From an uncultured Gammaproteobacteria bacterium (GTDB lineage Bacteria; Patescibacteriota; Microgenomatia; UBA12405; JAHJSD01), in NCBI GenBank assembly GCA_964428655.1, contig CAYRYE010000001.1:376406-440405 (forward strand): 64,000 bases of DNA, written 5' to 3'. Below are positions 9,137-62,593 of this stretch, piece after piece. The notes under the pieces are model-generated. The model was not told the origin of the DNA. It did not search any database and worked only from the letters and a program-made list of their open reading frames with translations. Each line of letters opens with the position of its first letter. The first letter of the stretch is position 1. A program made the position numbers and the translations under genes.

Positions 9137-9143
9137 ATAAATA

Positions 9144-9172
9144 ATTATATTGGAAAAGATTGTTAAAATCAA
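9144..9172 (-). promoter_or_regulatory. Sigma70-type promoter TTGATT-17nt-TATAAT. The -10 element ends 7 nt before the ATG at 9136, so the transcript is leaderless.
   Basis: Read on the minus strand: ttgatt ttaacaatcttttccaa tataat tatttat ATG. Confidence 0.5.
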
Positions 9173-9213
9173 CTTTTTGTGTGTTAGTTGGCTGAGGTAG
9201 AACTTATGGTAAA

Positions 9214-11058: not shown

Positions 11059-11112
11059 TATTTTATTCTAACACGGAGTGTATAATAAGGTAGTTGGAAT
11101 TATCTTTACAGT

Positions 11113-27812: not shown

Positions 27813-27868
27813 GAAAAAATTACCCCTTGACAGGCTTTTTAAAATGCTGTTCTATTGAAATAGAGCTT

Positions 27869-30800
27869 ATGAGGCATCGCAAGTTTCTTTTTGGTTTTCT
27901 CCTTATCTTGTTTTTAGTTGGGGGAGCGGTTTCCGTTTCTCGGGTTATAAAAATAGTTCGGGCGGCTGACATTTCAGTTTCTGTTTTTACAGCTGATGAC
28001 TATGATACTTCTGCGGAAGATGTTACTTATGACCTTACTTTTGTCGCACCGGTAGATGAAGATGAATATTATCAATTTGGTCTAATGCGTGTTCGCGGCG
28101 ATCATTCTACGGTCGGGGCTGATTTTGCTAACGCAACCCTTGTTACATTAACTGATGACGGCGCTGATATTTCCGGCAATGTCTCTCTTAGCAAACATAG
28201 CCCTGATGAAACTGGCTATGTTTCTGGATTTACCCTTCTATTTAGTGGCGGACTTACAATAGAGGGAGGCTCAACAGTTGTTGCCAGCTTTGGCGGGATC
28301 ACTAATCCAGTTGGAGAAGGTGCTTTTATACCAAGCATTAGCGGTTCGGATTGGAGCGAAACTAATCAGGGCAGTGCTCCGTCTCAAGCATTTGGAACAC
28401 CATTGGTTAAATTTAAAGTTACTGATCCAGAGGGAACCGTTGTTTCTAATGCTAACATTTGGATTGGAAGCCTTTCGACAATGAACTATTTTAATGCCGG
28501 CGGCGAAACTGATGCCGGTGGACAAACCTTTTTCTTTATAAGTGATTTTTATGGAGTTGATGATGCCGACAGAAGTGGCGATTACTCCGTTGAAATTAAT
28601 CCTCCTTCTGATAGTGAATACACCCGGCCTCCGAATTTTACTATTACATTAGCTGAGGGCGAGACTCTTGATTGTACAAATAAGGGTTCAACTTGCAGTG
28701 AGGATGTTGGTAATGGCCCGATTTTACTAACAAGGCCAATGGCCAAAGGAAAAGTTGTTGTCCCGGCTAATCCTCCAAGCACTGTTACTGCCTTAGCTGG
28801 TTCAGGGGTGGCTAATGTCCAGGTTCAGGTTAGAGATAGTGTCAGTATGGATCCCGGTGCTTCCAATTGGATGTGGACTGATTCTGAAGGAAACTTTAGA
28901 ATAGGCGGTTTATCAGCCGGCACTTATACTATTGAATTTGCCATGGGTTGGGGCAATGAGCAATTTGTTGGCTTATTGGCTCCTGATACAATAACCAACT
29001 TTGTTGTCAATGCTAATGGATCTGTTACTTATAATAGTTCAACTACAGCGGCAGCGAGTTTACCTCGTGATTTTGGCAATCTTGCTTTGCAAGTGGCCAA
29101 TAAAGATATCCTTGGCAAAGTTGTTGACGGTGACGGAAATGGAATTAATGGCATGAGGATTAGGGCCAACAAAATGATGGGGATGGGGGATAGCCAAACC
29201 ACAACAGCCGCTAATGGCACTTATGGTCTTCAAGTTGGCGCTGGTAATTGGTGGATAATGCCGGAGATAGATTATTCCAATAACTATGATGATGACACAA
29301 CTAATGATGTATCAGCTAATTATATTTATTGTGGTATGCCTAAAAATGTTGTTTTTGAGGAAGCCAATTCTGTGGAAGAATCATCTACCGGCAACAATTT
29401 TACTATGAAGCAGGCCACGGCTACAATTACCGGAAGAGTCGTTCTTCCCAATGGATCACCAGTAACAGGCAATGCCGGCGTTAATGCTTTTTCTAAAGGT
29501 GGCTGCGGCGGTTATTCTTCAGTTGATTGGGATGATGGGACTTTCTCAGTATCTGTTCCTCCCGGTACATACAATATTCAGGTTAATTCCTGGAATGAAG
29601 AATATGGAGACCCTGCAACCGAAACAGTTACTGTTACTACAGGGACAACGAATTTAGGTGATTTTTCCTTGGTTGCTAAAGAAGCAAGAATCAGTGGTCG
29701 GCTTTGGGCTGATGCTAATAATAATGACACCTATGATGCTGGCGAAGGAGTGGGTAATACTCGGGTTGAAGCTTTTAAAATGGCCAGAAAATTTGACGAG
29801 TTTTCCATGGGAGGAATGGGCGGCCCAATGGGAGGATCTGATTGGGCGACAACTAACAGCTCTAATGATGCGGCAACAAAGGGGCAGTTTACTCTTTATG
29901 TTACTCAAGGCAGCTGGAATGTCAATGTCATGGCTGATATGGGAATGATGCACGGTGGTTATTCAACCACGGCGACTAATTACATTTACACTGGATCACC
30001 AATTCAGGTTAATATTACCTCTGCTACTGGAACAAGTACAGGAAATAACTTTGAGTTAAAAGTTGCCGACGCCACTATTAATGGTCGTTTGTGGAATGAT
30101 ATTAATGAAGATGGTGAGTTTGATAATGGTGAGGGGGTTCCCGGTGTGTTTGGCTATGCTTTTGCTGAACCTGATGGTGCCTTTAATCAAGGCCCGATGA
30201 TGGGCATGGGCATGGGAGCGGGAATTAATAATGGCAGTTTTACAATTAAAGTCCCTGCCGGAACCTATCGAGTGGGAGTTGATTTCCCTCCTGACATGGC
30301 TGGATATACCCCATCTGCTATGGCCACTGTTACTGTTGCCGAGAGCGGAACGGCAACTGTAAACGTTCCCGTTATTGAAAACAATGCCATAGTTGCTATG
30401 TGTTTTAAAGATGTTGATGGCAATGCAGTTACTTCTCTTCAATATGCAGAAACCTTTTTAAACAATTCAGCCGGAGCCCACCAGTGGCAAATGTTTTCTA
30501 CAGAAAATCTTACTACCGGTTGTGCCAATATTACTACGGCCGCTGGAGAGTGGTATATTGGCTATCACATAGATCCAACCACTGATAATTATATGAGTGA
30601 GCCTATGTCTGATAACAAAGTGACCGCTATCGCCGATGATACTGTTACTAAAAACATTACCTTAAGGGTAGCGGATTCAACCGTTAGCGGCACTGTTTAT
30701 GACCCCAGCGGCAGCCCCTTGGCCGGTGTATTTATTTCAACAGACAATCGTAAAGCAGCCGGGTTTGATATGGCCGGACCAATGTTTATGCGGGGTGAAG

Positions 30801-38314: not shown

Positions 38315-39304
38315 ATGGCCATCGAAGCCTCTATTATCATTCCCGTAAAAGAAATTAATGATTATATACGGGATGAGATAATTCCGGCTTTAAAAAGACA
38401 GACTTTTAAAAATTTTGAATTGATAATTATTCCTGATAGACATGGGGGCTTGGTCCGTTTTCCTTCATTTGTCAGAATTTTTCCTTCATGGCCAAAGATA
38501 GGTCCGGCTTTTAAAAAAGATTTAGGAGTAAAAAAGGCCAAAGGAGAAATTGTTGTCTTTCTTGATGATGATGCTTATCCGGAAAAAGATTGGTTAGAAA
38601 AAGCAATACCTTATTTTAAAAGAGATGAAGTGACGGCTGTTTGCGGTCCTGGGGCGACTCCAGCCAATGATCCTGTTTTGGCCAAAGTTTCCGGTTGGAT
38701 GTGGTCATCGCTTTTGGGCTCTGGTGGAGCCGGAACTTACCGCTGCTGGCCTGGCAAAAAGCGAGAGGTGGATGACTATCCAGCCTTTAATTTATTTGTT
38801 AGAAAAAAAGATTTTGAATCAGTGGGTGGGTTTGATTCCAAATTCTGGCCGGGCGAGGATACTAAATTGTGCCATGATCTAGTCTATAAATTGGGCAAGA
38901 AAATTATTTATGATCCTAAAATTTTGGTTTATCATCACCGAAGAAAAATATTTAAACCCCATCTTAAGCAAATCGGCCGCTATGGATTCCAACGGGGATA
39001 TTTTGTTAGAATTTTGCCCAAAACTTCTAAAAGAATTGGTTATTTTATGCCGACACTTTTTGCGTTAGGCTTAATAATCGGGCCTGTTTTTTATTCTATT
39101 TTCGAGTCAGAGATAATAATTAATTTTTATTTATTTTCACTATTTGTTTATTTTTCGTTATTATTTGGAACAACAATTTGGGTTTTTACTAAAAGCAAGA
39201 ATTTGTTAATAGCTTTGCTGGTAATGCCAACAATTTTTGCCAGCCATGTTTTCTATGGCATTATGTTTTTAAAGGGGTTGTTCAGCAGACTGGAGACTAT
39301 TTAA
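38315..39304 (+). CDS. GT2 glycosyltransferase with a C-terminal membrane-spanning region
   Basis: ASIIIPVKEINDY…FELIIIPDRHGG…VVFLDDDAYP GT-A core. The last roughly 90 aa are hydrophobic. Confidence 0.6.
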   Translation: MAIEASIIIPVKEINDYIRDEIIPALKRQTFKNFELIIIPDRHGGLVRFPSFVRIFPSWPKIGPAFKKDLGVKKAKGEIVVFLDDDAYPEKDWLEKAIPYFKRDEVTAVCGPGATPANDPVLAKVSGWMWSSLLGSGGAGTYRCWPGKKREVDDYPAFNLFVRKKDFESVGGFDSKFWPGEDTKLCHDLVYKLGKKIIYDPKILVYHHRRKIFKPHLKQIGRYGFQRGYFVRILPKTSKRIGYFMPTLFALGLIIGPVFYSIFESEIIINFYLFSLFVYFSLLFGTTIWVFTKSKNLLIALLVMPTIFASHVFYGIMFLKGLFSRLETI

Positions 39305-41017
39305 TAGTTGTTTTGCCTTTTCATTGGCGGGTTGCAGTTCAATAAACTTTTTTAGATTTTCTTCGGCAAGCTTGAAATTCTTTTGTTCAAGATAAATAGC
39401 GGCTAGGTTTTGGTAAGACTGCCAGATATTAGGATTAATCTCAATGGCTTTTTGGTAATTTTTAATTGCTTCGTTGATCTTGTTGGTTTGCCAATAAATA
39501 TTGGCTAAATTATGATAAGCATCGGCATAGCCTGGTTTTAGTTCAATCGCTTTTTTAAATTCTTCAATTGCTTTTTCAAAATTACCGTGACGGCCGTAAT
39601 AATCACCTAAATTATTATGATTTTGATGACTTGAGGGTGAAGTTTTGGCCGCCGCCAGCCAAAGATTATCCTGATTTTTCCAATCACGATTTCTGACAAT
39701 TGTTCTTGTCGTTAAGGCAACAAGAATTAGAGTAAAAATAATCAGAGGTATATTTCTAATCTTCTTTATATCGTTTAGTTTTTTAACTACTATGGCGATG
39801 ACCACAAAGATGCCAATTGAGCCGAGATAGACATACCGTTCAGCTACGAGCCAAGAGATTCCAAACGGAGTCATTGTTGGTAGGAGAGAAATGATAAAAA
39901 ATGACAGCCAAAAAAAGATATGACGATTTCGTTTAAAACTGTAGACAATTATTCCCAAGAAAGCAATTAGAACTCCTAATTTTATAAAATATTCTAATTG
40001 GCTAAAGACCATTTCTGAATGATAAAGAGTCAAATTTTTTGGCCAGAAGATAAGTTCAAGATAGGAAGTAATTGCGATTGGTACTTGGTGTAAAAGATTG
40101 GAAGTTTTGGGTTTTTGGTAAAAGTTTGTTTCCAACGAAGTAATCCTGGTTCCCATAGCTCCGGAGCTGAGAAAATAAAGTCCCCAAAAACTACTTATTC
40201 CTAGAAAAAGGAGAAGCTTTTTCCAATTGGTTTTTAAGTTTTCAAAACAGAGTTCGTAAACAAAGAGAATAATTGGAAAAATAATTGCTTTCTCAGAGAT
40301 AGTGAGAGCCAAGAAAAAACTGGTGAGAGAGAGGTAGATGTATCGGTTGTTTTTTAGGGTCAAGATGTAAGAAAGAATGGATAGCATTATGAAGAAACTA
40401 TACATACAGTGGCCTCCGCCAGAAATCCAAGTAATAGATTCAATGAGAATAGGGTGGACAGCGGCAAGAGAGGCGGCCATGATTGCTGTTATTTTGTCAA
40501 AAAGAAGATAAATAATGATGAAAACTAGACAAACGGTTGCCAGGTGGAAAAGAATATTGGGAAGTCGAAAGGCGATTGGTGATTTGCCAAAAACTTGGTT
40601 AATCAAAAAGTAAAACAGAGGTTGAAAAAATCTCAGTAGACGAAAAGGAGAGGAGGTAACATATGAAATATCATCTATGTTCTTGTTATTAAGAATGCCT
40701 TCTATATCATCAGAAACAAATTCGTTGTTAATGGAATTTGCATATGAAATAAAGACAAGAACGATTAGGACTATTATATAGAGATAATGTTCAATCATCC
40801 ATTGTTTGAAGCCAAATTTAGATAAATTTTTCCTTTTGTCTTCTTCTGTAGATTTTTGTTGTTTGATAAAGCGTTGATATTTTTTTTCTTTCCAAATTTT
40901 TTTCAAATAAGACTGAATTGTCTCGGGAGGAATATCTGAGTCTTTAGCGACTTGGCTTAAACTCATGATCTTAAGTTTTTTTCTTATCTCTTCTTTTTGT
41001 TTTTTTGTAAGATTCAT
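39269..41017 (-). CDS. Integral membrane GT-C-like protein fused to a C-terminal TPR-repeat domain
   Basis: 582 aa. The N-terminus is charged and HTH-like (…MSLSQVAKDSDIPPETIQSYLKK…). About 11 TM helices follow. The C-terminus has at least three TPR units (…AIEEFKKAIELKPGYADAYHNLANIYWQTNKINEAIKNYQKAIEINPNIWQSYQNLAAIYLEQKNF…). Confidence 0.55.
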   Translation of the reverse strand: MNLTKKQKEEIRKKLKIMSLSQVAKDSDIPPETIQSYLKKIWKEKKYQRFIKQQKSTEEDKRKNLSKFGFKQWMIEHYLYIIVLIVLVFISYANSINNEFVSDDIEGILNNKNIDDISYVTSSPFRLLRFFQPLFYFLINQVFGKSPIAFRLPNILFHLATVCLVFIIIYLLFDKITAIMAASLAAVHPILIESITWISGGGHCMYSFFIMLSILSYILTLKNNRYIYLSLTSFFLALTISEKAIIFPIILFVYELCFENLKTNWKKLLLFLGISSFWGLYFLSSGAMGTRITSLETNFYQKPKTSNLLHQVPIAITSYLELIFWPKNLTLYHSEMVFSQLEYFIKLGVLIAFLGIIVYSFKRNRHIFFWLSFFIISLLPTMTPFGISWLVAERYVYLGSIGIFVVIAIVVKKLNDIKKIRNIPLIIFTLILVALTTRTIVRNRDWKNQDNLWLAAAKTSPSSHQNHNNLGDYYGRHGNFEKAIEEFKKAIELKPGYADAYHNLANIYWQTNKINEAIKNYQKAIEINPNIWQSYQNLAAIYLEQKNFKLAEENLKKFIELQPANEKAKQLLNSLQSAEQPL

Positions 41018-51176: not shown

Positions 51177-51947
51177 ATGAAACAAAATTACCGAGATTTG
51201 CTTTTCAACCTGGTTAAGCGCGAGATTGCTGGGAGGTATAAACAATCAATTCTGGGCTACTTCTGGGTGGTTTTAAACCCCTTTTTCCAGATGCTGGTAA
51301 TGACATTAGTCTTTTCAAAAATCATGCGAATTTCGATTCCTGGTGTGCCTTATTTTCTGTTTTTATATGTGGGTCTCTTGCCTTGGACTTTTTTTGTTAA
51401 TTCTGTTAATTCGGCAATGGGAAATCTGGTCGGCATGGGTTCTTTAATAAAAAAGGTTTATTTTCCCAGGGAGATTATTGTTTTGGCAGCTGTTTTAGCA
51501 AAAGTGGTAGATCTTATTTTGGCCTCTCTGATTTTTGTCTTGTTTATGATTATTTTTCGCCAATCAACTAATTTGGCTTTAGATTTAGCAGTTGTTCCTA
51601 TGATTTTTCTTATCCAGTTTATTTTTTCTTTCGGCATTGGCCTTTTTGTTTCTGCTTTAAACCTTTTTTATCGCGATGTTCAGTATTTGATGAGTTTAAT
51701 TTTAATGCTTTGGTTTTATTTAACGCCAGTGGTTTATCCAATTGAAATGGTCCCCGAGAAACTGCGGATTGTCTTTTCACTTAATCCTATGTCGGTTTTA
51801 ACCAATGCTTATCGACGGGTAATTCTAGGCGGTTCTTTGCCAAATTTAGCCCATTTGACAGTCGCCTTGTTAGTTTCGTTAATTATCTTGGTAATTGGCT
51901 GGAGAGTATTTAAAAAACTAGAAGGCCGCTTTGCAGATGTTGTCTAA
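51177..51947 (+). CDS. ABC-2 type transporter permease (Wzm/TagG-like polysaccharide exporter)
   Basis: 256 aa with 6 TM helices. The N-terminal …LVKREIAGRYKQSILGYFWVVLNP… ABC-2 signature precedes the Wzt-like ATPase. Confidence 0.7.
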   Translation: MKQNYRDLLFNLVKREIAGRYKQSILGYFWVVLNPFFQMLVMTLVFSKIMRISIPGVPYFLFLYVGLLPWTFFVNSVNSAMGNLVGMGSLIKKVYFPREIIVLAAVLAKVVDLILASLIFVLFMIIFRQSTNLALDLAVVPMIFLIQFIFSFGIGLFVSALNLFYRDVQYLMSLILMLWFYLTPVVYPIEMVPEKLRIVFSLNPMSVLTNAYRRVILGGSLPNLAHLTVALLVSLIILVIGWRVFKKLEGRFADVV

Positions 51948-53391
51948 AAAAATGAAAAATAACATTGCCATTAAATTTGATTCTGTTTCTAAACTCTATT
52001 ATCTCCAGTCCCATCGGACTTTAAAAGAGTTTCTGCCGGCATTTTTAAAAAAGAAAGCACCAAAGACTCTCCGACGAGTGGCCCGTCAGTTTTATGCCCT
52101 AAAAAACATTTCTTTTAAAATTAAAAAGGGCGAGACAGTCGGCATCATTGGTCCTAACGGAGCCGGCAAGTCAACTATTCTCAAATTGATCGCCGGCGTC
52201 ACCAAGCCAACCAGAGGAAAAATAACTGTCAACGGCCAGGTTTCACCTTTAATCGAATTAGGAGCCGGTTTTCATCCTGATTTAACCGGTCGGGAAAACA
52301 TTTATCTTAACGGTTCCATTTTGGGTCTGACTAAAAAGAAAATTGACAAAAAATTCAAAGAAATCGTTGATTTTGCCGAACTCTGGGACTTTATTGACCA
52401 ACCAGTCAAACACTATTCTTCAGGTATGTATGCTCGTTTAGGCTTTTCAATTGCCATTAGTGTTGAGCCGGAAATTCTTTTAATTGATGAAATTTTAGCT
52501 GTTGGCGATGCTGCTTTTCAAGAAAAATGTTTTGCCAAGATGGAGGAATTTAAAAAGAGTGGAGTGACGATTATTTATGTTTCCCATTCCCTTCCCAGTG
52601 TGGCCAAATTTTGTAATCATTGTCTCTATTTAGATAAATCCAAGTTGATTTCTGAAGGTAATCCCCAAGAAATAATAGAAAATTATTTAAGAACTGAAAA
52701 AAAAGTCAGCAGTCAACAGTATCACCAAACCCCAGAAAAAAGTTCAATTGAGGCGATTGATCCAAGCTGGTACAAAAATTTTGTTGGCGGCATGTGGGAG
52801 GAAATAGGTAAGTTACAGTTTGATTTTTTAATTAAACAAGGCTTAAAACCTGAAAATAAGTTATTAGATCTTGGTTGCGGCAGCTTGAGAGGGGGAATTC
52901 ATTTTATTAAATATCTTAAAAAAGGAAATTATTTTGGGATTGACGTTAGAAAAGATATTTTAATTGCCGCTGAAAAAGAAATTAAAATTAATAAACTATC
53001 AAACAAGAATCCTCAATTATTTCAAATAACTGATAATAAATATGATGATCATTTAAAAGAAAAATTTGATTTTATTTTGGCTGTTTCCGTTTTTACCCAT
53101 TTAAATTTAAATGAAGTTGCTATTTGTTTATATGAAGCAAAAAAAATTCTTAAAAAGAAAGGCAATTTTTTTGCCACTTATTTTGAATCAGAAAAATGTG
53201 TTTTTGATACTAATGGTTTTCTTCAAGTAGAGAAGCCGGATAAGGTTATTACCCTTTTTCACAAGGATCCTTACCATTATTGCTTTTCTCTAATAAAAGA
53301 AGTGGCTAAATTAATTGGATTAAAGGCAAAAGTTATCAAGAATTGGAAACATCCTCGAAATCAAAAAATGTTAGTTTTTAGACATCAGTAA
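51931..53391 (+). CDS. ABC transporter ATP-binding protein (Wzt/TagH-like) fused to a C-terminal class I SAM-methyltransferase-like domain
   Basis: Walker A GPNGAGKST, signature YSSGMYARLG, Walker B LLIDEIL, H-loop YVSHS. Then a ~230-aa extension with LLDLGCGSLRGG (MTase motif I), YFGIDV, and FDFILAVSVFTH. Confidence 0.7.
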   Translation: MQMLSKKMKNNIAIKFDSVSKLYYLQSHRTLKEFLPAFLKKKAPKTLRRVARQFYALKNISFKIKKGETVGIIGPNGAGKSTILKLIAGVTKPTRGKITVNGQVSPLIELGAGFHPDLTGRENIYLNGSILGLTKKKIDKKFKEIVDFAELWDFIDQPVKHYSSGMYARLGFSIAISVEPEILLIDEILAVGDAAFQEKCFAKMEEFKKSGVTIIYVSHSLPSVAKFCNHCLYLDKSKLISEGNPQEIIENYLRTEKKVSSQQYHQTPEKSSIEAIDPSWYKNFVGGMWEEIGKLQFDFLIKQGLKPENKLLDLGCGSLRGGIHFIKYLKKGNYFGIDVRKDILIAAEKEIKINKLSNKNPQLFQITDNKYDDHLKEKFDFILAVSVFTHLNLNEVAICLYEAKKILKKKGNFFATYFESEKCVFDTNGFLQVEKPDKVITLFHKDPYHYCFSLIKEVAKLIGLKAKVIKNWKHPRNQKMLVFRHQ

Positions 53392-53393
53392 AT

Positions 53394-56300
53394 ATGGCTA
53401 AGGGTAAAAGAAAGACCATTTGTATTTTAGGAATGCATCGGGCAGGCACTTCCCTTTTAACTAGAATTTTAAATATTTCTGGAATGGCGATTGGAGAAAA
53501 AGAGGAAATAATTGGTGTCAGGAAGGGTAATCCCACCGGTCATTGGGAAAATAAAGCCTTTGTTGAGATTAATAATCAGATTATTTCAATATTTAAGAAA
53601 AATGCTGATTGGCATGAAATTCCTGATTATCCCACTAATTGGTTAAAAAATCCCAAGGTAGTATCACTGGAAAGAAAAGCAAAAGAGCTAGTGAAAAAAA
53701 TGAATGCAAGATATAAAATTTGGGGGTGGAAAGACCCCCGAACTTGTGTTACTTTGCCTTTTTGGCAAAAGATAATTGGGGACGAATTGGTCTATGTGGT
53801 TATTTTTAGGAATCCTCTTGATGTCGCCAAATCATTAAAAAAAGTTCACAATCTTCCCCATGATAAAAGCATTTTGCTTTGGGCAAGATATTATCTTACT
53901 GTTTTAGATAGTCTTAGAGGCAAGAAGTTTTCTTTTATTCATTCTGAAAAATTATTATCAAATTGGGAAAAAGAAATTAAAAAAATATTGAAACATATAA
54001 ATTCTTCTTATCTCAAAATTAATGATCAGAAAAGAGAAGAGGTTAACAATTTTATCAGGCCTAGCATTTGGCATTTTAGTACCAAGACTAAAAATAGTTT
54101 TTTTGGCTTGGCAGATAATTTGCGATTGGCCTTGCTTGATTACTTATATCTTTCTACTAATAAAGTTAAAACAATTTTAAAAAAGGATCTTACTAATTTG
54201 GGCCATCAGTTAGCCAATAAAACCAACCAGGCAAATGCCCTTGTTGGAGAATTAACGAAAAAAGATGAACAATTGATAGTTAAAGATAACCAATTAAGTG
54301 ACTTTTCTAAACAATTAAGAGATACTACTGAGGAGTTGGAAGTGACTAAAAATGAACTTGTCGAGGCTGAGGAAAAGTTAGGAAAAACAGGTAAAGAAAT
54401 ATATGACGCTATAATTAAGCAGGAACAAAAAATAAAACAGCTTCGGTTAAAAGCAAGAGAGATCAATAAATCTCTTAAAAAGAAAAAGATGGTTATCAAA
54501 GAAAAAAACAAAAAAGTGGCTGATCTAAGTCTCCACTCTCAAAATCTGGGGAAAATTCTTGCCAATATTGTTTCGGCAAAAACTTTTAAGGCCTGGCAAA
54601 CATACGTGAAGATTAGACGAAAACCGACGCTTTTGATTGAAGCTGGGAAAACTTTATTAAAAAAAGGTCCAGGAGGTTTAAAGCAAAGGTTGACAAATGT
54701 TCAACAAAAGGAAGAAAGAATAGCCGCTCTTAATCAACAATATCATGTTTGGTTGAGAAAAAATACTCCCACAAAAAAGGAATTAAGAGGTCAAAAAAGA
54801 AAACAAAAAAAATTTGAATATAGGCCCAAAATCAGCATTATTACTCCAGTTTACAACACTGATAAAAAGTGGCTGCGAGCCTGTATTGAATCGGTCTTAG
54901 TTCAAACATACGACAATTGGGAGTTATGCATAGCTGACGACGCCTCAACAAAGCCCTATATTAAAAAAATCTTGAAAGAATATGAAAAGAAAGACAAGAG
55001 AATAAATGTTGTTTATCGTCGAAGAAATGGCCATATTTCTCGAGCCTCAAATTCAGCTCTGAGACAAGCAGTGGGAAAGTTTATCGCCCTTTTAGATCAT
55101 GATGATAAGCTAGTGCCTCATGCCCTGTATAGAGTGGTTGAATTTTTGAATAAAAAAAGAAAGGCTGATTTTGTTTACTCTGATGAGGACAAATTAGATT
55201 TAAATGGCAACCGGGTTAAACCATTTTTTAAGCCAGACTGGTCACCTGATATGTTTTTATCAGCCAATTATTTGTGTCATTTAAGTGTAATTAGAAAAAA
55301 ATTAGTTGATAAAGTTGGTGGTTTTAAACCAGGCTATGAGGGTTCTCAGGATTATGATTTGTTTTTAAGAATTACTGAAAAGACAGACAAGATTTATCAC
55401 ATCCCTGATGTTCTTTATTCTTGGAGAGAGGCGTCTGGATCTACGGCGGCAGTTTATGAAGTCAAGGGTTATGCTGATGCGGCCGCAGCTAAAGCCTTAA
55501 AAAGTAGTATTAAAAGAAAAAAATTAAAAGCAGAAGTGGAACAAGGTTTGATTCCCGGAACATTTAGAGTTAAATACAAGATTAAAAAGAAACCTTTGGT
55601 TAGTATTATTATTCCTACCAAAGACATTGTTAATTATCTTAAAAGGTGTGTTGAATCTATTTTGAAAAAAACAGATTATGATAATTATGAAATTATTATT
55701 GTTGATACTGGAAGCAAAGAAAAGAAAACCTTTAGGTATTATGAGAAATTAAAAAAAAATCCAAGGATTAAGTTTTTGCAATGGGATAAACCTTTTAATT
55801 TTGCTTCAGTTAATAATTTTGCTGTTAAGAATACCCAAGGGAAATATGTTCTTCTTCTTAATAATGATATAGAAGTCGTCTCTTATGATTGGATAAAGTC
55901 AATGCTTGAGCATGCCCAGAGAGCTGAGGTGGGAGCGGTAGGGGCGAAATTATTATACCCTGATGGAAAAATTCAACATGCCGGGATAATTTTAGGGATT
56001 CGTGGCGGACCAATTAAGAAGGGGATAGCTGGTCATGCCCAAAAGATGTTTATAGATGAACCTTCGGGATTACCCCTATGGAACTCAAAAGATATGATAA
56101 GGAATTTTTCAGCAGTAACAGCCGCCTGTCTTATGATTGAAAGAAGTAAATATTTAGAAGTCAAAGGGATGAATGAAAAACTAGAAATTGCCTTTAATGA
56201 TGTTGATTTTTGCCTTAAACTGCAAAAAAAGGGGTATCTCAATGTTTATACCCCTTATGGCGGACTTTATCATTACGAGTCAGTTTCTGTTGGTCGTCCA

Positions 56301-56441
56301 AGTCAAGGGACAAGAGATATTGCCGAATTCCAAAAAGAGATTAACATAATGCACCGAAAATGGGGGCACCTTTTACAAAATGATCCTTACTATAATTCAA
56401 ACCTGACTTTAGACAGGGAAGATTTCAGTTTGGGAGTATGA
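53394..56441 (+). CDS. Multidomain glycan assembly protein: N-terminal sulfotransferase-like domain, ~200-aa coiled coil, then two tandem GT2 domains
   Basis: 5'-PSB-like ICILGMHRAGTS and 3'-PB-like VIFRNPLDVAKS. Heptad-rich K/E/Q segment about aa 270-470. GT2 domain 1 has ISIITPVYNTDKKWL…CIADDAST…LDHDD. GT2 domain 2 has VSIIIPTKDIVNYL…IIIVDTGS…LNNDIEV. Confidence 0.7.
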   Translation: MAKGKRKTICILGMHRAGTSLLTRILNISGMAIGEKEEIIGVRKGNPTGHWENKAFVEINNQIISIFKKNADWHEIPDYPTNWLKNPKVVSLERKAKELVKKMNARYKIWGWKDPRTCVTLPFWQKIIGDELVYVVIFRNPLDVAKSLKKVHNLPHDKSILLWARYYLTVLDSLRGKKFSFIHSEKLLSNWEKEIKKILKHINSSYLKINDQKREEVNNFIRPSIWHFSTKTKNSFFGLADNLRLALLDYLYLSTNKVKTILKKDLTNLGHQLANKTNQANALVGELTKKDEQLIVKDNQLSDFSKQLRDTTEELEVTKNELVEAEEKLGKTGKEIYDAIIKQEQKIKQLRLKAREINKSLKKKKMVIKEKNKKVADLSLHSQNLGKILANIVSAKTFKAWQTYVKIRRKPTLLIEAGKTLLKKGPGGLKQRLTNVQQKEERIAALNQQYHVWLRKNTPTKKELRGQKRKQKKFEYRPKISIITPVYNTDKKWLRACIESVLVQTYDNWELCIADDASTKPYIKKILKEYEKKDKRINVVYRRRNGHISRASNSALRQAVGKFIALLDHDDKLVPHALYRVVEFLNKKRKADFVYSDEDKLDLNGNRVKPFFKPDWSPDMFLSANYLCHLSVIRKKLVDKVGGFKPGYEGSQDYDLFLRITEKTDKIYHIPDVLYSWREASGSTAAVYEVKGYADAAAAKALKSSIKRKKLKAEVEQGLIPGTFRVKYKIKKKPLVSIIIPTKDIVNYLKRCVESILKKTDYDNYEIIIVDTGSKEKKTFRYYEKLKKNPRIKFLQWDKPFNFASVNNFAVKNTQGKYVLLLNNDIEVVSYDWIKSMLEHAQRAEVGAVGAKLLYPDGKIQHAGIILGIRGGPIKKGIAGHAQKMFIDEPSGLPLWNSKDMIRNFSAVTAACLMIERSKYLEVKGMNEKLEIAFNDVDFCLKLQKKGYLNVYTPYGGLYHYESVSVGRPSQGTRDIAEFQKEINIMHRKWGHLLQNDPYYNSNLTLDREDFSLGV

Positions 56442-57496
56442 AAAAACTACAAGAATGTTTTAAAAAACTCAAAAATATAAGATTTTATAAATTTATCCTA
56501 TTGCTTTGTTTGTTTATCTTTTGGCTTGGTTTTTTTATTTGGCATTTTGGTGATATAAAAATTACCCAATGGGGGGACATCCCGTTAACTACTAGTAACT
56601 TTTTGGAATCATACTATTGGACTAAAAAGATAATTTTTTGGGATAAAACTTTGGAGCTGATCGAAGAGAAGGTCAATGAAGAAAATTTGAAAAAATTGTT
56701 GCTTGAAGCCTATGTTGAGGCAATTCCAGTTAATCAGTGGTGGTCACCTCTAAGAGGAGATAAGGTGAAAGCTTTAAGGGATTTATTTGATTTTTATCGG
56801 GAAAATGAGGACTGTTTAGTTTTGGAAAAAGCCGCCTTTGAGTTTATTAAAATAAATTCTGACCATCCCGATGGTTATTTCAATTTAGGACTTGCTCTAG
56901 AAAAACAAGGTAAACTTAACCAAGCAGCGGAAAATTACAGAAGGACGCTTTCTTTAGAAAAAACTCATCTGGCGGCAATTAAACAGCTCTCTTCCATTCT
57001 TATTGAGAAGGATAGGTATTATGAAGCAAAGGAGGTTATTTCAGCTTATGAAACCAGAGTAGATTTAGTTGATCGGACTTTTTGCTTCTATTCAGATGAT
57101 GATAATTTCGCCGAGGGAGGAAAAAGTTGCGGCAGTAGATTTTTAGATGGTAAATATGTAATACGGATTGATAATAAAAATGTGAACATTAAAATGATAA
57201 GAATTGACCCCCCTCAAGGAAAGTTGTTTTTGCAAAAAATAGAGTTTGTTTCTCCTGGCGGCAAAGTGGAAAAAACAATAGATAGTTTTAGGGGATGGAT
57301 TATGTCAAAAGACTTAAAAAAAGTGGATGATCATAATTTCTATAGTATAGGTAGTGACCCTTATCTCTACATTAAATTATCGACTCATCTCGATTTTTCC
57401 CAATTCGACCAAGTTTTAATTGAGGCATCAATTGATCCGGATACTGACCCAGAAATAGATGTTTTATTGAAAGAGATAGAAGATAAAATTTCCTAG
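56438..57496 (+). CDS. N-terminally membrane-anchored TPR-repeat protein, unknown function
   Basis: TM helix FYKFILLLCLFIFWLGFFIW. TPR-like …HPDGYFNLGLALEKQGKLNQAAENYRRTLSLEK…. Confidence 0.5.
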   Translation: MKKLQECFKKLKNIRFYKFILLLCLFIFWLGFFIWHFGDIKITQWGDIPLTTSNFLESYYWTKKIIFWDKTLELIEEKVNEENLKKLLLEAYVEAIPVNQWWSPLRGDKVKALRDLFDFYRENEDCLVLEKAAFEFIKINSDHPDGYFNLGLALEKQGKLNQAAENYRRTLSLEKTHLAAIKQLSSILIEKDRYYEAKEVISAYETRVDLVDRTFCFYSDDDNFAEGGKSCGSRFLDGKYVIRIDNKNVNIKMIRIDPPQGKLFLQKIEFVSPGGKVEKTIDSFRGWIMSKDLKKVDDHNFYSIGSDPYLYIKLSTHLDFSQFDQVLIEASIDPDTDPEIDVLLKEIEDKIS

Positions 57497-57501
57497 TTAA
57501 A

Positions 57502-60500
57502 ATGAAAAATATTGAAACAAAGAAAAAAATAATTCAGATTTTTTTAGGTTCCTGGATCGCTATTTCAATTATTTTTATGGCCTTGTCCTTATATGCCTTT
57601 GGCCAAAGTGTGGCAGAATATAGACATTTTGCCACTTTCAATGACTGGAAATCATTTCAAACAGCTAATGCTAAAAATTTTTTCAAGAATAACTTTTATT
57701 ATTTTAAGGGCAGGTTAAAAAAAGTTTTTATTAGTAATAATTCTATTCGGGAAAGATTGAAAGAGAATGGTTTCGATTATATTAATTTAGAAACCCTTCC
57801 AGCAGACTTACACTCCCTGGATTCTGACTTACCAGCTAGTGGTAGAAGCTATATCGAGGGGGAAATTAATTTAGAAAAAGGAAAAAAGGAACCGGTTCTG
57901 CTTAAGTATCGCGGTGACAATTTTTATCATTGGGGCTTTCCTAAAAAATCTTTCAAAATAAAATTTGATGACGATAGGATTATTAATCTTATTAACCCAA
58001 AAGAAATTGATTTTATTGCTGATAAAATTGCCTTTAATTTAGCTGAGGAAATGGGTCTTTATTTTTCTGGAGTAAAGTTTACTGGTTTATTCATAAACAA
58101 TGACTTTAAAGGGATATTTCTTGAGACAGAGGAGCCAAATACTGAGTATATCCGAAATCACTCACTTCCTTTTAGGGCCGTTTTTCAAGGAGAGAGCATT
58201 GGTCCGGACAGACAGGGTCTAGGTTTATTTCAAGACTCGAATAAATGGGATCTTGATGGTGGCTATTTGTCTAAGAAAAGCCTAGAGCCCTTTCTAAGGG
58301 CTCTGAATGAGGGAAATTTCAAAGGAATTTATCAAAATATTAACTTTGACTACTGGGTTAATTTCTATACTTTTGTCTCACTTATTCAAAATAGCCATTT
58401 TGATGATGCTCACAACTGGTTTTGGGGCGTTCATGGAGATCGTTTTTACCCTATTGTTTGGGATCCTGTCGGTTGGGTTATGAGAACTGGCTCTGGTGAA
58501 GGGGTAGAGGAAATGAAATCCATGATTTCTCAAACTTTTCGGAAAAATGTCTATTTCTCTAGTAGTTTTTCTCATCAACTCTGGCAACGAGTTAATGACT
58601 CCGGATTATTGGAAAGAATGTTTCAGGAAATGGATGAAATCAGTCTTTCTTTAGAAAATGTTTTGGACTACGATTTTTATAAAGGGGGCATATTTGGTAA
58701 TTCCAAGGGGGCTAGGTCACCTCAGACTACGGAAGAGATCCTAGAGGAAATTGCTGGCTTAAGGTCAAAAATTCAAGACAGGTTTGATTTTCTTAAGAAT
58801 GCTCTGTCTAAGGCTTCTGCTAGTTATTATATTGATGATAGGGATAATTGGTTGTATCTCCAGTACTCTGGTATTGCTCCCGCCGAAATAAAACAGATTT
58901 ATAGGGGGGTTCCCTTTGTCAATTATTCAACAGTTGAAGTTTTTAATAATTTGCAATATTTCCCCCTCCCCTTAGATTTAAACCAAATTGTTTCCGGTCG
59001 AGTTTCTGCTGGCGGCCCCTTTCCTTATGCAAAAGTTTGTCCAATGAGTTACCGAGTTAAGGTTAATTCTCGTCTCGGAGGTTTAATTGAGCCAAAATTA
59101 GTTAATTCTTTGAGCAAGGAAGAAATTGATCTTAAAGAGGTTAATGAATTTTCTCCTACTGACTGCATGATGGATTTTACCAGTCCAGGTGAGACTAAAT
59201 TTGGAAAACAAACAATTAATAATCAAAAAAGGGAAAATAATAGTCTTGAAATAACATTTTCTACCATTAATCCGGCTGATTATTTTGATTTTGACAGAAA
59301 TGATGAGGATGAAACTAAAATGACTTTGGGGGCTGAAAAATATGATAAAGTTTTCTTTAAAAAGGAAGAATTTAGTAAAAATATAGAACTAGAATTTAAA
59401 AAGCAGGAATATTTAGGAAGAGAGAATTGGTATTTGTCGCCTATTGATTTTAATAGCGGTTTTCTTTTCTATAGCCAGAGTTTGGCCCGGTCTCTGGGTT
59501 TTCCAATAAAGAAGCAGGAATTACTAAGTGTTTTTGGTAACGAATTCTATATTGGTGAATACTTCTTAAAAGAAGCAGCTGAGAATAAGGCCTTTTTTGA
59601 GGTTAATGGCTTAACTTTTGACACCGATATTTACAAGCTTGAAGGGGAAGATAGTCTCAAGAGGAAAAATTGGCAGAAGATTTCCACTGACCCGCGAAAA
59701 GAAGTTGATGATGATGAAACTTTAAAGGGTCTTTTAGACTCTTTAAATGATCCAAATGCCCTATTTAAAATTATTGATTGGCAAAATTTTGCTAATTTTT
59801 ATTCTTATCTAATTTTAGCCAGAGATGAGTTTCCTCAATATTTGCTTTATTTTGATAATACCCTAGGGAGGTTTAAGTTTATTCCTGATAAGGAAAAGTT
59901 TTATAGAGCAAATCAGGGATTTGATATTTATGACCCTTTGGTTCAGGAAATTTTAAAAAAAGACTTTGTTTGGGAAATTTTAGCCGAAAAAATTGGGAGG
60001 GATATTGATGGCATTTTATCTAAGATAATCCAGCAATATCAAGGGACAGGGAAACAATATCAAGAGAAAATCGAAAACAGTTTTGTTTATTGGAGTGATT
60101 CAGATGAAGGGCAAGGGCGAGAGTATTTTACTAATCAAGAGAAAATATTAAGAAATAATTTCTCAATCCTTAATGGGAAGGCGCAAGAATTAGTTGAAAG
60201 AAAAGATGAATCACTGATCCAGGAAATGATAGAAAGTTCTCAAAAAGAATTCTGGCAAAAAGATTCAATCTTTACCCTAGGGGATGAAGATAAAGTTATT
60301 TTGATCAAGGAGGGAAACCATTCTATTAAAAAGGATGTTATTATTCCTCCTGGACTAACTGTTGTTATTGAGCCGGGGGCAGTATTAGAAATGGGTTCAA
60401 AAGCCTCTATTGTTTCTCTTTCCCCAATAATAGCTGAGGGAACAGAGGATAAGCCAATAAAAGTGATTCCCTTAAAGGAAAAAAAGCCCTGGGGAGTAAT

Positions 60501-61152
60501 TGCTGTTTTAGGAACAGGTAGTCGAGAATCTCAGTTTGAGCAGATGATTTTTCAAGGAGGATCAGAAACATTTCTGAATAATGTCTATTTATCAGGCCAA
60601 CTTTCTATTTATCATGCTGACGTCTTGATTAGGGATTGCCAATTTTTAGAAGCAAAGGCAGATGATTCTTTAAATTTAAAATATGGCAAATTTTTAATAG
60701 AGAGTAGCTTTTTTGGAGAAAACAATGCTGATGCAATTGATCTTGATTTTGTCACCGGAGAGGTCATTAATAGTACTTTCGAAAAAAATGGTAACGATTC
60801 TATTGATGTTTCTGGGGCGAGAGTTTTGATCAAAAATAATACCATTAGCAACTCAGGAGACAAGTGCATTAGCATTGGAGAGGAGAGTGAAACAGAGGTT
60901 GTTGCTAATGTTTTAGATAGTTGTAGCATTGGTATTGAGATAAAGGATAGTTCAGTCGCCCATATCGAGGATAACCAAATTATTAATAATAATATTGGTA
61001 TTAATGCCTATCAAAAGAAAGTTTTCTTTGAGGGAGGAAGAGGAGAGGTCTACACTACCATTTTTGATAACAATCGAGAAGATATTGATTACAAAAATAC
61101 TTCTACTGGTGTTAAATTTGATACTGATAATTCAGAGATAGTTGTCCATTAA
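57502..61152 (+). CDS. CotH-family (atypical protein kinase) domain protein with an N-terminal TM anchor and a C-terminal right-handed parallel beta-helix repeat domain
   Basis: …VLLKYRGDNFYHWGFPKKSFKIKFDDD… is the hallmark CotH motif region. The C-terminus has NosD/pectate-lyase-like repeats (…NNTISNSGDKCISIGEES…IEDNQIINNNIGINAY…). Confidence 0.65.
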   Translation: MKNIETKKKIIQIFLGSWIAISIIFMALSLYAFGQSVAEYRHFATFNDWKSFQTANAKNFFKNNFYYFKGRLKKVFISNNSIRERLKENGFDYINLETLPADLHSLDSDLPASGRSYIEGEINLEKGKKEPVLLKYRGDNFYHWGFPKKSFKIKFDDDRIINLINPKEIDFIADKIAFNLAEEMGLYFSGVKFTGLFINNDFKGIFLETEEPNTEYIRNHSLPFRAVFQGESIGPDRQGLGLFQDSNKWDLDGGYLSKKSLEPFLRALNEGNFKGIYQNINFDYWVNFYTFVSLIQNSHFDDAHNWFWGVHGDRFYPIVWDPVGWVMRTGSGEGVEEMKSMISQTFRKNVYFSSSFSHQLWQRVNDSGLLERMFQEMDEISLSLENVLDYDFYKGGIFGNSKGARSPQTTEEILEEIAGLRSKIQDRFDFLKNALSKASASYYIDDRDNWLYLQYSGIAPAEIKQIYRGVPFVNYSTVEVFNNLQYFPLPLDLNQIVSGRVSAGGPFPYAKVCPMSYRVKVNSRLGGLIEPKLVNSLSKEEIDLKEVNEFSPTDCMMDFTSPGETKFGKQTINNQKRENNSLEITFSTINPADYFDFDRNDEDETKMTLGAEKYDKVFFKKEEFSKNIELEFKKQEYLGRENWYLSPIDFNSGFLFYSQSLARSLGFPIKKQELLSVFGNEFYIGEYFLKEAAENKAFFEVNGLTFDTDIYKLEGEDSLKRKNWQKISTDPRKEVDDDETLKGLLDSLNDPNALFKIIDWQNFANFYSYLILARDEFPQYLLYFDNTLGRFKFIPDKEKFYRANQGFDIYDPLVQEILKKDFVWEILAEKIGRDIDGILSKIIQQYQGTGKQYQEKIENSFVYWSDSDEGQGREYFTNQEKILRNNFSILNGKAQELVERKDESLIQEMIESSQKEFWQKDSIFTLGDEDKVILIKEGNHSIKKDVIIPPGLTVVIEPGAVLEMGSKASIVSLSPIIAEGTEDKPIKVIPLKEKKPWGVIAVLGTGSRESQFEQMIFQGGSETFLNNVYLSGQLSIYHADVLIRDCQFLEAKADDSLNLKYGKFLIESSFFGENNADAIDLDFVTGEVINSTFEKNGNDSIDVSGARVLIKNNTISNSGDKCISIGEESETEVVANVLDSCSIGIEIKDSSVAHIEDNQIINNNIGINAYQKKVFFEGGRGEVYTTIFDNNREDIDYKNTSTGVKFDTDNSEIVVH

Positions 61153-61153
61153 A

Positions 61154-61903
61154 ATGAAACGATCAAAAACAAAATTAGGATTAAATTTTCGCCGCTTTGA
61201 GTTTAAATACTTAATGCCAGCTAAATTGGCTGATATTATTGTTGCCTCTATTGTTCACTATACCAATATTGATCCCTATATTGAGAAAGAAGACTTTTAT
61301 TATGTTAATAGTATATATCTGGATAGCAATGACTTCTTTTTTTATCAAGAAAAGTTAAGCGGTTTGAAGAATAGAAAAAAGTATCGACTGAGATTTTACG
61401 GAGAAGAGATTTATCCTCCCAAGCAACCTTTATTTTTTGAGATTAAAAGGAGGGTGGATGCCGTAATAATAAAAAACAGGACGGTAGTAAGGTTAAAACA
61501 TTTGAGGGCAATAAATCTTTCTAATTGGCAGGATGTTGCTCAAGAAAATCAGAAATTTTTCACTGAGTTCTATCATGACTATCGTTGGTTTGGTCTCAAG
61601 CCAGGTCTTTTTGTTAGGTATAAAAGAAAGCCCTTTTTTTCAAAATTTGACCGCAATTTTAGGGTTACTTTTGACTTCGATCTGCAGGCGGCAAAAGTTA
61701 ATCAATTAACCCCTGGGGTAGTTCATTATAGGAATATTTTAAACAAAGTTGCTGTTATGGAGGTTAAATTCAATGGTATTATCCCCTCTTGGTTTGCTGA
61801 GGTCATTAGGACTAATAACTTGAAACGAGCCCCCTTTTCTAAATATTGTAATTCTTTGAATATCATATATAATTTTGATGACGAGTTACCAATTATTTAT
61901 TAG
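61154..61903 (+). CDS. VTC-domain (polyphosphate-polymerase-domain-like, CYTH-related) protein
   Basis: …NFRRFEFKYLMP…, about 250 aa. It has the typical genomic association with CotH and DUF4956. The ORF track start is 61142. Confidence 0.5.
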   Translation: MKRSKTKLGLNFRRFEFKYLMPAKLADIIVASIVHYTNIDPYIEKEDFYYVNSIYLDSNDFFFYQEKLSGLKNRKKYRLRFYGEEIYPPKQPLFFEIKRRVDAVIIKNRTVVRLKHLRAINLSNWQDVAQENQKFFTEFYHDYRWFGLKPGLFVRYKRKPFFSKFDRNFRVTFDFDLQAAKVNQLTPGVVHYRNILNKVAVMEVKFNGIIPSWFAEVIRTNNLKRAPFSKYCNSLNIIYNFDDELPIIY

Positions 61904-61915
61904 TTTTACTTTTCT

Positions 61916-62593
61916 ATGAATAATACTAACGCTTTAATTAAGACTTTTAGTAGTCCTCTTGTTACTATCTATTATTTAGGCATTTCTATTGCTGTGGCCT
62001 TTATAATTGCCGTTGTTTATCGGAAAACTCACAGGAGTGTTTCTTATTCGCAATCCTTTGCCAATAGTTTAGTAATGCTTCTTCCAATGGTGGCTTTGAT
62101 AATTAATATTGTTAATACCAATGTTGCTCGGGCAATTGGGGTTTTTGGAGCCTTTTCAGTAACTCGCTTTAGGACGCCGATCAAAGACACTCGGGATATG
62201 GTATATATTTTTTGGTCACTTGCAGTTGGCTTGGCCATTGGAGCGGGTGAAGTAGGAATAGCAGTTACAGCTACCATAGTTTTATCTTTGCTAGCCTATT
62301 TGCTTTATTTAACTAATTTTGGTGCCACTAGTAATTATGACTACACCTTGATAACCAATTTAGATACCCGCCAAGGCAAACTTGAAGATTTAAAGAGGGT
62401 GATTGATAAATACTCGAAAGCAAAAGAAATTATTAATATTCAGTCAGATAAGAATGGGGAAAACCTAGAACTTAGTTCTAACTTGAAGCTAAGGAAGGGT
62501 ATTAAAATAGATGAATTAGTTGGTGAAATCAATAGATTAAAAGGAGTTGGTGAAGTAAATGCGAGTCCTTCACAAGGGGGAATTGAGTTTTAA
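61916..62593 (+). CDS. DUF4956-family membrane protein
   Basis: …IGVFGAFSVTRFRTPIKDTRDMVYIFWSLAVGLAIGAGE… is characteristic of DUF4956. The N-terminal half has 3-4 TM helices. Confidence 0.55.
   Translation: MNNTNALIKTFSSPLVTIYYLGISIAVAFIIAVVYRKTHRSVSYSQSFANSLVMLLPMVALIINIVNTNVARAIGVFGAFSVTRFRTPIKDTRDMVYIFWSLAVGLAIGAGEVGIAVTATIVLSLLAYLLYLTNFGATSNYDYTLITNLDTRQGKLEDLKRVIDKYSKAKEIINIQSDKNGENLELSSNLKLRKGIKIDELVGEINRLKGVGEVNASPSQGGIEF

Follow-up and report, generated by a model that had tools for sequence, protein, structure and literature searches.

A widespread CotH, VTC and DUF4956 gene trio in a bacterial glycan island: a candidate envelope-spanning polyphosphate system

The stretch of contig CAYRYE010000001.1 analyzed here (64,000 nt, termed the 64-kb window; all coordinates are positions in it) carries three consecutive genes encoding a large CotH kinase-like protein, a VTC protein resembling polyphosphate polymerases, and a DUF4956 membrane protein. 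The same trio was found in loci from several phyla, and the gene neighborhoods indicate that VTC and DUF4956 are the invariant core of the module. We infer that the three genes encode one envelope-spanning system. In the reading that we tentatively favor, and regard as plausible although short of probable, polyphosphate would be made inside the cell, passed outward by or with DUF4956, and used, attached or processed by the external CotH protein.

The first-pass annotation of this DNA had assigned the three families from the sequence, and all three assignments held, with every match exceeding its Pfam gathering threshold. CotH (PF08757) matched residues 134–427 of the first protein (E = 2.8e-20, 73.5 bits against a cut-off of 23.8), VTC (PF09359) matched the second (E = 2.1e-39, 135.9 bits against 23), and DUF4956 (PF16316) matched the third (E = 1.7e-16, 60.8 bits against 30.6). 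In the list of open reading frames (ORFs), CotH occupies 57502–61152 (+) and encodes 1216 aa, VTC occupies 61142/61154–61903 (+), and DUF4956 occupies 61916–62593 (+) and encodes 225 aa. In the database, the VTC protein (249 aa) uses the ATG at 61154 as its start in place of the TTG at 61142, so that VTC begins 2 nt past the end of CotH; the DUF4956 gene starts 12 nt past the VTC stop codon, and the trio is co-directional and nearly abutting, with intergenic gaps of 1 and 12 nt. Upstream, a gene for a tetratricopeptide repeat (TPR) protein ends 5 nt before the CotH start and overlaps the preceding gene, which encodes a 1015-aa glycosyltransferase, by 4 nt. No convincing terminator was found between the TPR, CotH, VTC and DUF4956 genes, and a scan for promoter and terminator consensus sequences gave only background-level matches. 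This arrangement is that of a single transcription unit, or near that.

The conservation of the trio was evaluated by scanning one genome per species with the VTC alignment, which gave 80 loci and included the comparison across Candidate Phyla Radiation (CPR) genomes that the first-pass annotation had proposed. DUF4956 lay directly after VTC on the same strand in 70 of the 73 loci with enough downstream sequence, and an iterative search placed a CotH ORF within 10 kb of VTC in 49 of the 52 loci where both flanks reach at least 4 kb. An earlier CotH profile hidden Markov model (HMM), built from CPR sequences, detected CotH in 33 of the 39 CPR-like loci and in 1 of the remaining 13 and missed the CotH proteins of Firmicutes, which was corrected with Pfam and jackhmmer. 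CotH was Pfam-confirmed in all tested non-CPR loci, namely those of Oscillospiraceae (L070), Bacilli (L072), Mediterraneibacter (L080), Hydrogenedentota (L061) and Lokiarchaeum (L066), and the VTC-linked loci together span CPR, Firmicutes, Hydrogenedentota, DPANN and Lokiarchaeum. In Candidatus Lokiarchaeum ossiferum (CP104013, 479501–500202), CotH, VTC and DUF4956, all Pfam-confirmed, occupy positions 7310–11545 of the locus in the same order as in the window. Moreover, a reverse scan started from four distant proteins that combine CotH with a beta-helix (from Acidobacteriota, a gammaproteobacterial symbiont, Diapherotrites and Planctomycetota) found DUF4956 nearby in 4/4 and VTC directly downstream in 3/4. 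The first-pass annotation had rightly called the trio recurrent and functionally unexplained, as both this multi-phylum scan and the literature indicate (PMC7112168, PMC12345266), but it had treated VTC and DUF4956 as bystanders, a view that the synteny contradicts. Several metagenome-assembled genomes with triads that are most CPR-like (L018, L024, L026, L033, L037, L038, L049, L055 and L071) are titled 'uncultured Gammaproteobacteria', and these titles may be mislabelled.

The VTC gene (61154–61903, +) encodes a stand-alone triphosphate-tunnel polyphosphate-polymerase domain of 249 aa. A single-sequence search against solved structures gave no match and a profile was required; the profile built from 29 homologues matched the catalytic domain of yeast Vtc4 (3g3q) with E = 1.5e-12. 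In this alignment, K200 of Vtc4 corresponds to K18 of the window protein, R264/R266 to R78/R80, K281 to K98, Y359/R361 to Y156/R158, E426/K428 to E203/K205, and S457/K458 to S229/K230. Nine of the ten aligned residues are invariant in the 29 homologues, with S229 as the exception. K200, E426 and S457/K458 of Vtc4 are presumably catalytic, and the numbering of the alignment was checked against them. The R264A/R266A/E426N combination has been used as a catalytically dead Vtc4 for cryo-electron microscopy (PMC9911596). The window protein is a single domain without an SPX domain or a transmembrane (TM) domain and has no hydrophobic segment, and it is therefore predicted to be cytoplasmic. The VTC profile retrieved 8,240 cluster representatives at E ≤ 1e-10, and the best 150 of these are single-domain proteins 168–346 aa long, with the VTC match covering most of each.

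The CotH protein (57502–61152, +) comprises a signal anchor, a CotH kinase domain, a beta-sandwich, a degenerate CotH-like domain with a helical tail, and a parallel beta-helix. The size and N-terminal anchor given by the first-pass annotation were borne out. Four Lys/Arg residues precede a single hydrophobic segment (residues 9–34, Kyte–Doolittle score 2.31), which forms a signal anchor at about residues 10–33 (57529–57600, +), and this positive-inside N-terminus predicts that the bulk of the protein lies outside the cytoplasmic membrane. Spore-coat CotH proteins are cytoplasmic and have no signal sequence, in contrast to the anchored window protein. The external location is also general, since an N-terminal hydrophobic anchor is present in 70 of the 75 linked CotH ORFs with an intact 5' end, and other linked CotH ORFs carry PKD, lamin-tail (LTD) and Fn3-associated domains typical of secreted proteins, including two lamin-tail domains in Lokiarchaeum.

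CotH kinase domain 1 (about residues 92–436; 57775–58809, +) gave no match to solved structures in a single-sequence search, and again a profile was required. The profile matched Bacillus cereus CotH (5jd9) with E = 3.9e-14, and Foldseek matched the domain, taken from an AlphaFold model covering residues 41–1216 (mean predicted local distance difference test [pLDDT] score 81), to the same structure with E = 2.7e-12 and a target-normalized TM-score of 0.66. Two motifs, H299-x-D301-x-x-H304-N305 and W320-D321, are invariant in 11 homologues that share 24–47% identity with the query, and their counterparts in 5jd9 are FD..HN and WD. In B. subtilis CotH, the catalytic and metal-binding aspartates have been mutated as D228Q and D251A (PMC7821199), and we read D301 and D321 as the counterparts of D228 and D251, so that the catalytic and metal-binding aspartates are predicted to be retained.

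The middle of the protein gave no Pfam match over residues 431–1000, a region that contains the beta-sandwich and the second CotH-like domain. The beta-sandwich (about residues 438–546; 58813–59139, +) is all-beta at residues 398–506 of the AlphaFold model and is present in the closest relatives only. The second CotH-like domain with its helical tail (about residues 581–917; 59242–60252, +) has the same order of secondary structure elements as domain 1 in the model. An iterative search seeded with residues 576–800 matched ORFs in 64 of the 80 loci, and these matches include loci whose sole CotH-domain ORF is Pfam-confirmed, such as that of Oscillospiraceae. Aligned with the family HMM, residues 659–896 have Phe in place of the catalytic Asp and Tyr-Leu in place of His-Asn; as this HMM may include the second domains of relatives, which would inflate the score, the residue alignment alone was used. 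The second domain is a degenerate copy that presumably lacks catalysis and is predicted to be a pseudokinase.

The C-terminal right-handed parallel beta-helix claimed by the first-pass annotation (about residues 932–1196; 60295–61089, +) was recovered with pLDDT >90, and the AlphaFold model and Foldseek agreed on it. Residues 1071–1210 matched Beta_helix (PF13229) and NosD (PF05048) with E of about 8e-9 and 35.7 bits (cut-offs 25.9 and 23.6), and the closest folds were NosD, alginate lyase, GH87 glucanase, AlgG and phage tailspikes (Foldseek E = 1e-5 to 1e-3). With the anchor placing the bulk of the protein outside, these polysaccharide-active folds accord with the extracytoplasmic location and the polysaccharide-binding role that had been suggested. 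An invariant ladder of acidic and basic residues runs along the helix (D1054 D1055, D1077 D1080 D1082, D1099 D1102, D1120 K1121, E1127, K1148 D1149 and K1172). In four loci (L006, L020, L022 and L076), the beta-helix is encoded as a separate gene adjoining CotH. The likeness of the helix to lyases, GH87 enzymes, AlgG and tailspikes, together with the clearly degenerate second CotH domain, would suit a protein that merely binds or cuts glycans at the surface as an adhesin, lyase or hydrolase, with an irrelevant kinase fold and with VTC and DUF4956 as unrelated neighbors. Fungal CotH proteins, for example, act as surface ligands. However, the aspartates and the His-Asn pair of domain 1 are invariant across the 11 divergent homologues, and the VTC–DUF4956 linkage holds in L070, L072, L061 and L066, where CotH has no beta-helix; we therefore consider a mere surface protein very improbable.

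The DUF4956 protein (61916–62593, +) consists of five predicted TM helices followed by an ACT-like domain. In its AlphaFold model (pLDDT 85.9), the helices span residues 14–38, 46–65, 69–86, 92–109 and 113–132, and residues 143–218 form a beta-alpha-beta-beta-alpha-beta unit. The Lys/Arg counts per loop are 1, 3, 0, 4 and 0, with 3 and 4 basic residues in loops 1 and 3 and none in loops 2 and 4, and this distribution places loops 1 and 3 and the C-terminal domain inside, in an N-out, C-in topology. The ACT-like domain is thus probably cytoplasmic in the modeled arrangement. A stretch with the sequence RFRTPIKD lies at the cytoplasmic end of TM3, and its residues R84, F85, R86 and T87 are invariant, with K90 and D94 nearly so. 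Such a basic cluster at the inner membrane face would be the expected appearance of a site that handles phosphate or polyphosphate. The 114 DUF4956 homologues (141–252 aa) contain PF16316 alone.

Comparison with known families linked DUF4956 to MgtC/SapB/YhiD proteins. Aligned by hhalign, DUF4956 matched Escherichia coli YhiD from TM3 to the C-terminus (probability 91.5%, E = 8.8e-7), so that TM3–TM5 and the C-terminal ACT-like domain correspond in the two families, but YhiD has ...LVRNQNIVGLTTAA... in the segment where DUF4956 has the invariant RFRTPIKD loop. The NCBIfam MgtC/SapB model PRK09977 reached only 22.2 bits against a cut-off of 214, which identifies DUF4956 as a remote relative of MgtC/SapB/YhiD and not as a member. 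The C-terminal domain resembles that of Mycobacterium tuberculosis MgtC (2lqj) with a TM-score of 0.61 and a weak Foldseek E of 0.03. The DUF4956 profile found no significant solved structure, and the ACT-like Foldseek matches were weak, none reaching E ≤ 0.001.

This relationship raises the possibility that polyphosphate stays in the cytoplasm. VTC and DUF4956 would then be an MgtC-like pair for phosphate or ATP homeostasis or signalling that tunes glycan output, CotH would be an independent ATP-dependent Ser/Thr kinase acting on secreted or membrane proteins, and the genes would be linked by co-regulation only. Besides the remote MgtC/YhiD homology and an ACT-like domain that possibly senses a ligand, this explanation can draw on the effects of MgtC on ATP synthase and PhoR (summarised in PMC12345266) and on the use of ATP by Bacillus CotH (PMC7821199). 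In addition, Streptococcus intermedius mutants shift the level of the exopolysaccharide Pel in opposite directions, upward when the DUF4956 gene is deleted (delta-1592) and downward when the CotH gene is deleted (delta-1594; PMC12345266), which looks regulatory. Against this, no ATP source is known for a kinase anchored outside the cell, the predicted location of CotH in 70 of the 75 linked ORFs, the basic loop that replaces the YhiD segment is specific to DUF4956, and co-regulation fails to explain a near-obligate linkage across CPR, Firmicutes, Acidobacteriota, DPANN and Asgard with unrelated neighbors. We therefore rate such a homeostatic pair as quite unlikely.

An invariant VTC–DUF4956 core beside an external kinase without an obvious ATP supply implies that the mechanism must include both VTC and DUF4956. 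In the trans-envelope reading, the soluble VTC triphosphate-tunnel enzyme, with its conserved catalytic residues, would work at the inner membrane face and build polyphosphate from the phosphate of ATP. DUF4956, with its RFRTPIK loop at the cytoplasmic face, would take the nascent chain and pass it outward or hand it across; its obligate adjacency and topology suggest a functional analogue of the transmembrane ring under Vtc4. The external CotH protein may then take the exported polyphosphate as phosphoryl donor, or process or attach it. The beta-helix, or equivalent binding domains, would hold the surface polymer on which CotH acts, and the most plausible candidate for that polymer is the glycan of the surrounding ABC-transporter-dependent cluster. 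The tight co-directional genes, the retained catalytic residues of VTC and CotH, the predicted topology and the cross-phylum linkage support this trans-envelope reading. That a VTC-type polymerase and an MgtC-like protein export polyphosphate as the donor for a kinase-fold enzyme in an ATP-free compartment is possible but rather doubtful.

The closest described counterpart of the window locus occurs as an accessory module in the Pel loci of Gram-positive bacteria. Whitfield et al. (2020) reported that accessory genes for CotH, a polyphosphate polymerase, DUF4956 and DUF4832 are contiguous there with pelDEADAFG, and they proposed that CotH might control Pel through phosphorylation (PMC7112168). 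In S. intermedius, SIR_1592 has MgtC-type TM helices and an ACT domain, SIR_1593 is the polyphosphate polymerase, and SIR_1594 is a secreted CotH protein with FN3; aggregation in artificial sputum medium, which is Pel-dependent, fell by >50% in delta-1592 or delta-1594 (PMC12345266). That study left the mechanism open and reported that the trio was not found outside Pel loci (PMC12345266). Our scan shows that the trio is far more widespread than this 2025 report indicates, and here it lies in a non-Pel cluster of the ABC-transporter type. The Pel module and the window share the three families, their predicted locations, their contiguity, the exopolysaccharide genes beside them and a polysaccharide-active module. 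In contrast to the Pel module, the window trio is not contiguous with pelDEADAFG but neighbors Wzm/Wzt, GT2, GT4 and PMT-type GT-C transferases, methyltransferases and radical SAM enzymes; it has no DUF4832 match, the place of which may be taken by the CotH-fused beta-helix; and it adds the degenerate second CotH domain and the TPR anchor protein, with its closest relatives in CPR genomes.

The same synteny and topology would equally suit a role for exported polyphosphate as the end product. At the surface or in the matrix, this polyanion would bind cations or cross-link exopolysaccharide, and CotH would serve as a primer, anchor or length-controlling enzyme, for example by linking polyphosphate to a protein or glycan. 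As a polycation, Pel would bind such a chain, and the invariant Asp ladder of the beta-helix could hold divalent cations. In Firmicutes the module adjoins Pel and chitin-synthase-like loci (PMC7112168, PMC2879425), Pel has been described as a polymer rich in N-acetylgalactosamine, and a role in the matrix would agree with the poorer aggregation of mutants lacking DUF4956 or CotH (PMC12345266). However, the S. intermedius VTC mutant aggregates normally (PMC12345266). The scanned window ORFs gave no polysaccharide deacetylase match, the glycan of the window cluster is not a known polycation, and the conservation of both CotH aspartates points to phosphotransfer chemistry, a feature common to the trans-envelope reading as well. 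An end-product polyanion therefore appears unlikely.

Several observations weigh against the trans-envelope reading. The strongest evidence against strict coupling is the silent VTC knock-out of S. intermedius, as delta-1593 had no clear phenotype (PMC12345266); this argues against a strict dependence of CotH on VTC-made polyphosphate, although redundancy with another polyphosphate source is possible. The AlphaFold model of the DUF4956 monomer shows no pore. MgtC-family proteins are not known to be transporters, and we know of no protein-kinase-like enzyme that uses polyphosphate as donor. In the iterative search over 10 kb, 3 of the 52 loci had no detectable CotH, and no fusion among VTC, DUF4956 and CotH was found in the 114 DUF4956 homologues, the best 150 VTC representatives or the loci. 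Furthermore, the association with glycan genes is descriptive, and full-text literature searches turned up no biochemical work on prokaryotic VTC, DUF4956 or triad CotH proteins.

Other known systems share parts of the window locus. The NELoc-2 locus of Clostridium perfringens encodes, in order, a VTC protein, a 222–226-aa membrane protein annotated as 'tubulin/FtsZ', CotH, a 685-aa protein, a HEAT protein and a chitin-synthase-like GT2 enzyme; Lepp et al. (2010) gave this order and did not discuss function (PMC2879425). We infer from its size, position and predicted location that the membrane protein is DUF4956. The Oscillospiraceae locus repeats the order (VTC, DUF4956, CotH, a 705-aa protein, HEAT and GT2). 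The NELoc-2 CotH protein has about 500 aa, has no beta-helix and follows the VTC/membrane-protein pair, whereas the window CotH precedes it.

In the eukaryotic VTC complex (Vtc4/Vtc3/Vtc1), synthesis by Vtc4 is coupled to translocation via a basic TM channel (PMC9911596). The window VTC protein has the homologous tunnel domain with the same aligned key residues, and the proposed logic would be alike, with chain synthesis on the cytoplasmic side coupled to transfer through a membrane partner that has basic residues. The two differ in that the window protein is separate, at 249 aa, and lacks the SPX domain and C-terminal TM helices of Vtc4, that its membrane partner is MgtC-like, with no evidence found of a relationship to the Vtc1-type TM domain, and that the destination would be the cell exterior rather than the vacuole.

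Bacillus spore-coat CotH (5jd9/5jda) has the same fold and catalytic aspartates as window domain 1. At about 360 aa and lacking a signal sequence, Bacillus CotH uses ATP and has CotB and CotG as its targets; neither VTC nor DUF4956 genes neighbor it. The window protein, by contrast, is anchored to the membrane on the outside, multidomain and encoded in a glycan cluster, and we know of no sporulation in its lineage. No sporulation or spore-coat Pfam family besides CotH was matched among the scanned window ORFs. The window locus is a variant of a documented, functionally unexplained module, distinguished by its CPR-type lineage, its non-Pel ABC-type glycan cluster, its tandem CotH domains, one active-looking and one degenerate, fused to a beta-helix, and its TPR partner. 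The lineage was assigned from relatives such as a candidate division CPR3 genome (L025) and Peregrinibacteria. The first-pass annotation, whose interpretation is supported in part, had not picked up the degenerate second CotH domain, the relationship of DUF4956 to MgtC or the conserved TPR protein. A defence-system reading was also considered and rejected, as PADLOC gave no model match to CotH, VTC or DUF4956.

The trio lies directly downstream of a glycan export module, as had been noted. The upstream order is Wzm (51177–51947), a Wzt–methyltransferase fusion (51931–53391), the 1015-aa glycosyltransferase, TPR and then CotH. The 1015-aa protein (53394–56441, +) has a sulfotransferase-like N-terminus, a charged stretch at about residues 260–400 that by eye looks like a coiled coil, and two GT2 domains. 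We take it to resemble the WbdD/WbbB-type chain-terminator, molecular-ruler or polymerase enzymes of ABC-transporter-dependent O-antigen pathways. Its N-terminus has a 'GMHRAGTSLL' motif but matched Sulfotransfer_3 below threshold (E = 5.6e-4, 20.7 bits against a cut-off of 27). Of the sulfation/glycosylation cluster proposed earlier, the glycosylation part stands, and the sulfation part has this sub-threshold match as its sole basis.

Pfam scans of the ORFs indicated that the entire window is a glycan and glycosylation island. It contains two Wzx-like flippases, at least 12 GT2/GT4 transferases, many methyltransferases, four radical SAM enzymes, one GT87-like enzyme and the Wzm/Wzt pair, as well as six PMT-type GT-C paralogues (12336–17371, 22156–25354 and 39269–41017) and a 1538-aa surface protein with CarboxypepD_reg repeats (27827–32443). 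A longer copy of this contig shows the island extending at least 9 kb past DUF4956 and including GT2, radical SAM, epimerase, methyltransferase and phosphodiesterase genes, so that the trio is embedded in the cluster and not at its edge. No Pfam match to polyphosphate kinase or exopolyphosphatase families, to Pel families or to the DUF4832 glycoside hydrolase was obtained among the scanned window ORFs, and a search for tRNA genes found none. A 197-aa protein with an adenylate/guanylate-cyclase domain (PF00211, E = 8e-7) is also encoded inside the island at 19110–19703 (-).

The TPR protein (56438–57496, +; 352 aa) has one TPR match at residues 145–176 and one hydrophobic segment (residues 13–40) after a K-rich N-terminus, which forms an N-terminal membrane anchor. 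About nine CPR loci, including L004/L005, L010, L025, L028, L035, L042 and L071, have a homologue immediately upstream of CotH, and the L004 copy is 36% identical to the window protein (E = 4e-66). The TPR anchor protein is probably an accessory fourth component of the system in this lineage. The L071 locus has the architecture of the window, with TPR followed by a CotH–CotH2–beta-helix protein.

Other neighboring genes recur in individual loci. Outside CPR, a 370–460-aa gene without a Pfam match fills the TPR slot, directly upstream of and overlapping CotH (L091 6853–8004, L092 6626–8014 and L094 1816–2925); the L091 and L094 copies are weakly similar to each other (E = 2e-9) and do not clearly resemble the TPR protein. 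In two unrelated loci (L009 6487–7938 and L091 12277–13722), the VTC–DUF4956 pair has beside it a gene of about 480 aa with a Metallophos (PF00149) domain. Yeast endopolyphosphatase Ppn2 presumably belongs to the Metallophos superfamily, and this gene could encode a polyphosphate-trimming partner. In a Peregrinibacteria locus (L007 7043–8008), a 321-aa gene with a weak CYTH match (E = 0.017) lies between CotH and VTC and may encode a second, divergent tunnel-fold protein.

Polyphosphate synthesis in bacteria is usually credited to PPK1 and PPK2, and polymerases of the VTC type are regarded as eukaryotic. In the sampled genomes, by comparison, DUF4956 accompanies VTC in nearly every case, and a CotH protein anchored outside the cell is usually present too. 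The main value of this analysis lies in this widespread prokaryotic system and its testable hypothesis, more than in a single locus, and the hypothesis is directly testable with the existing genetics of S. intermedius and C. perfringens. If the trans-envelope reading is true, the coupling would explain how a kinase-fold enzyme acts outside the membrane, give DUF4956 a function, and represent a previously unrecognised way to power the phosphorylation of surface glycans or proteins without ATP. It would also provide a new modification or matrix component for exopolysaccharide systems, among them those encoded by Pel loci in pathogenic streptococci and clostridia, and the Lokiarchaeum trio may bear on the origin of the eukaryotic VTC polymerase. 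CPR bacteria rely on the cell surface for host attachment, and the system would be among the few in CPR surface chemistry with a concrete hypothesis.

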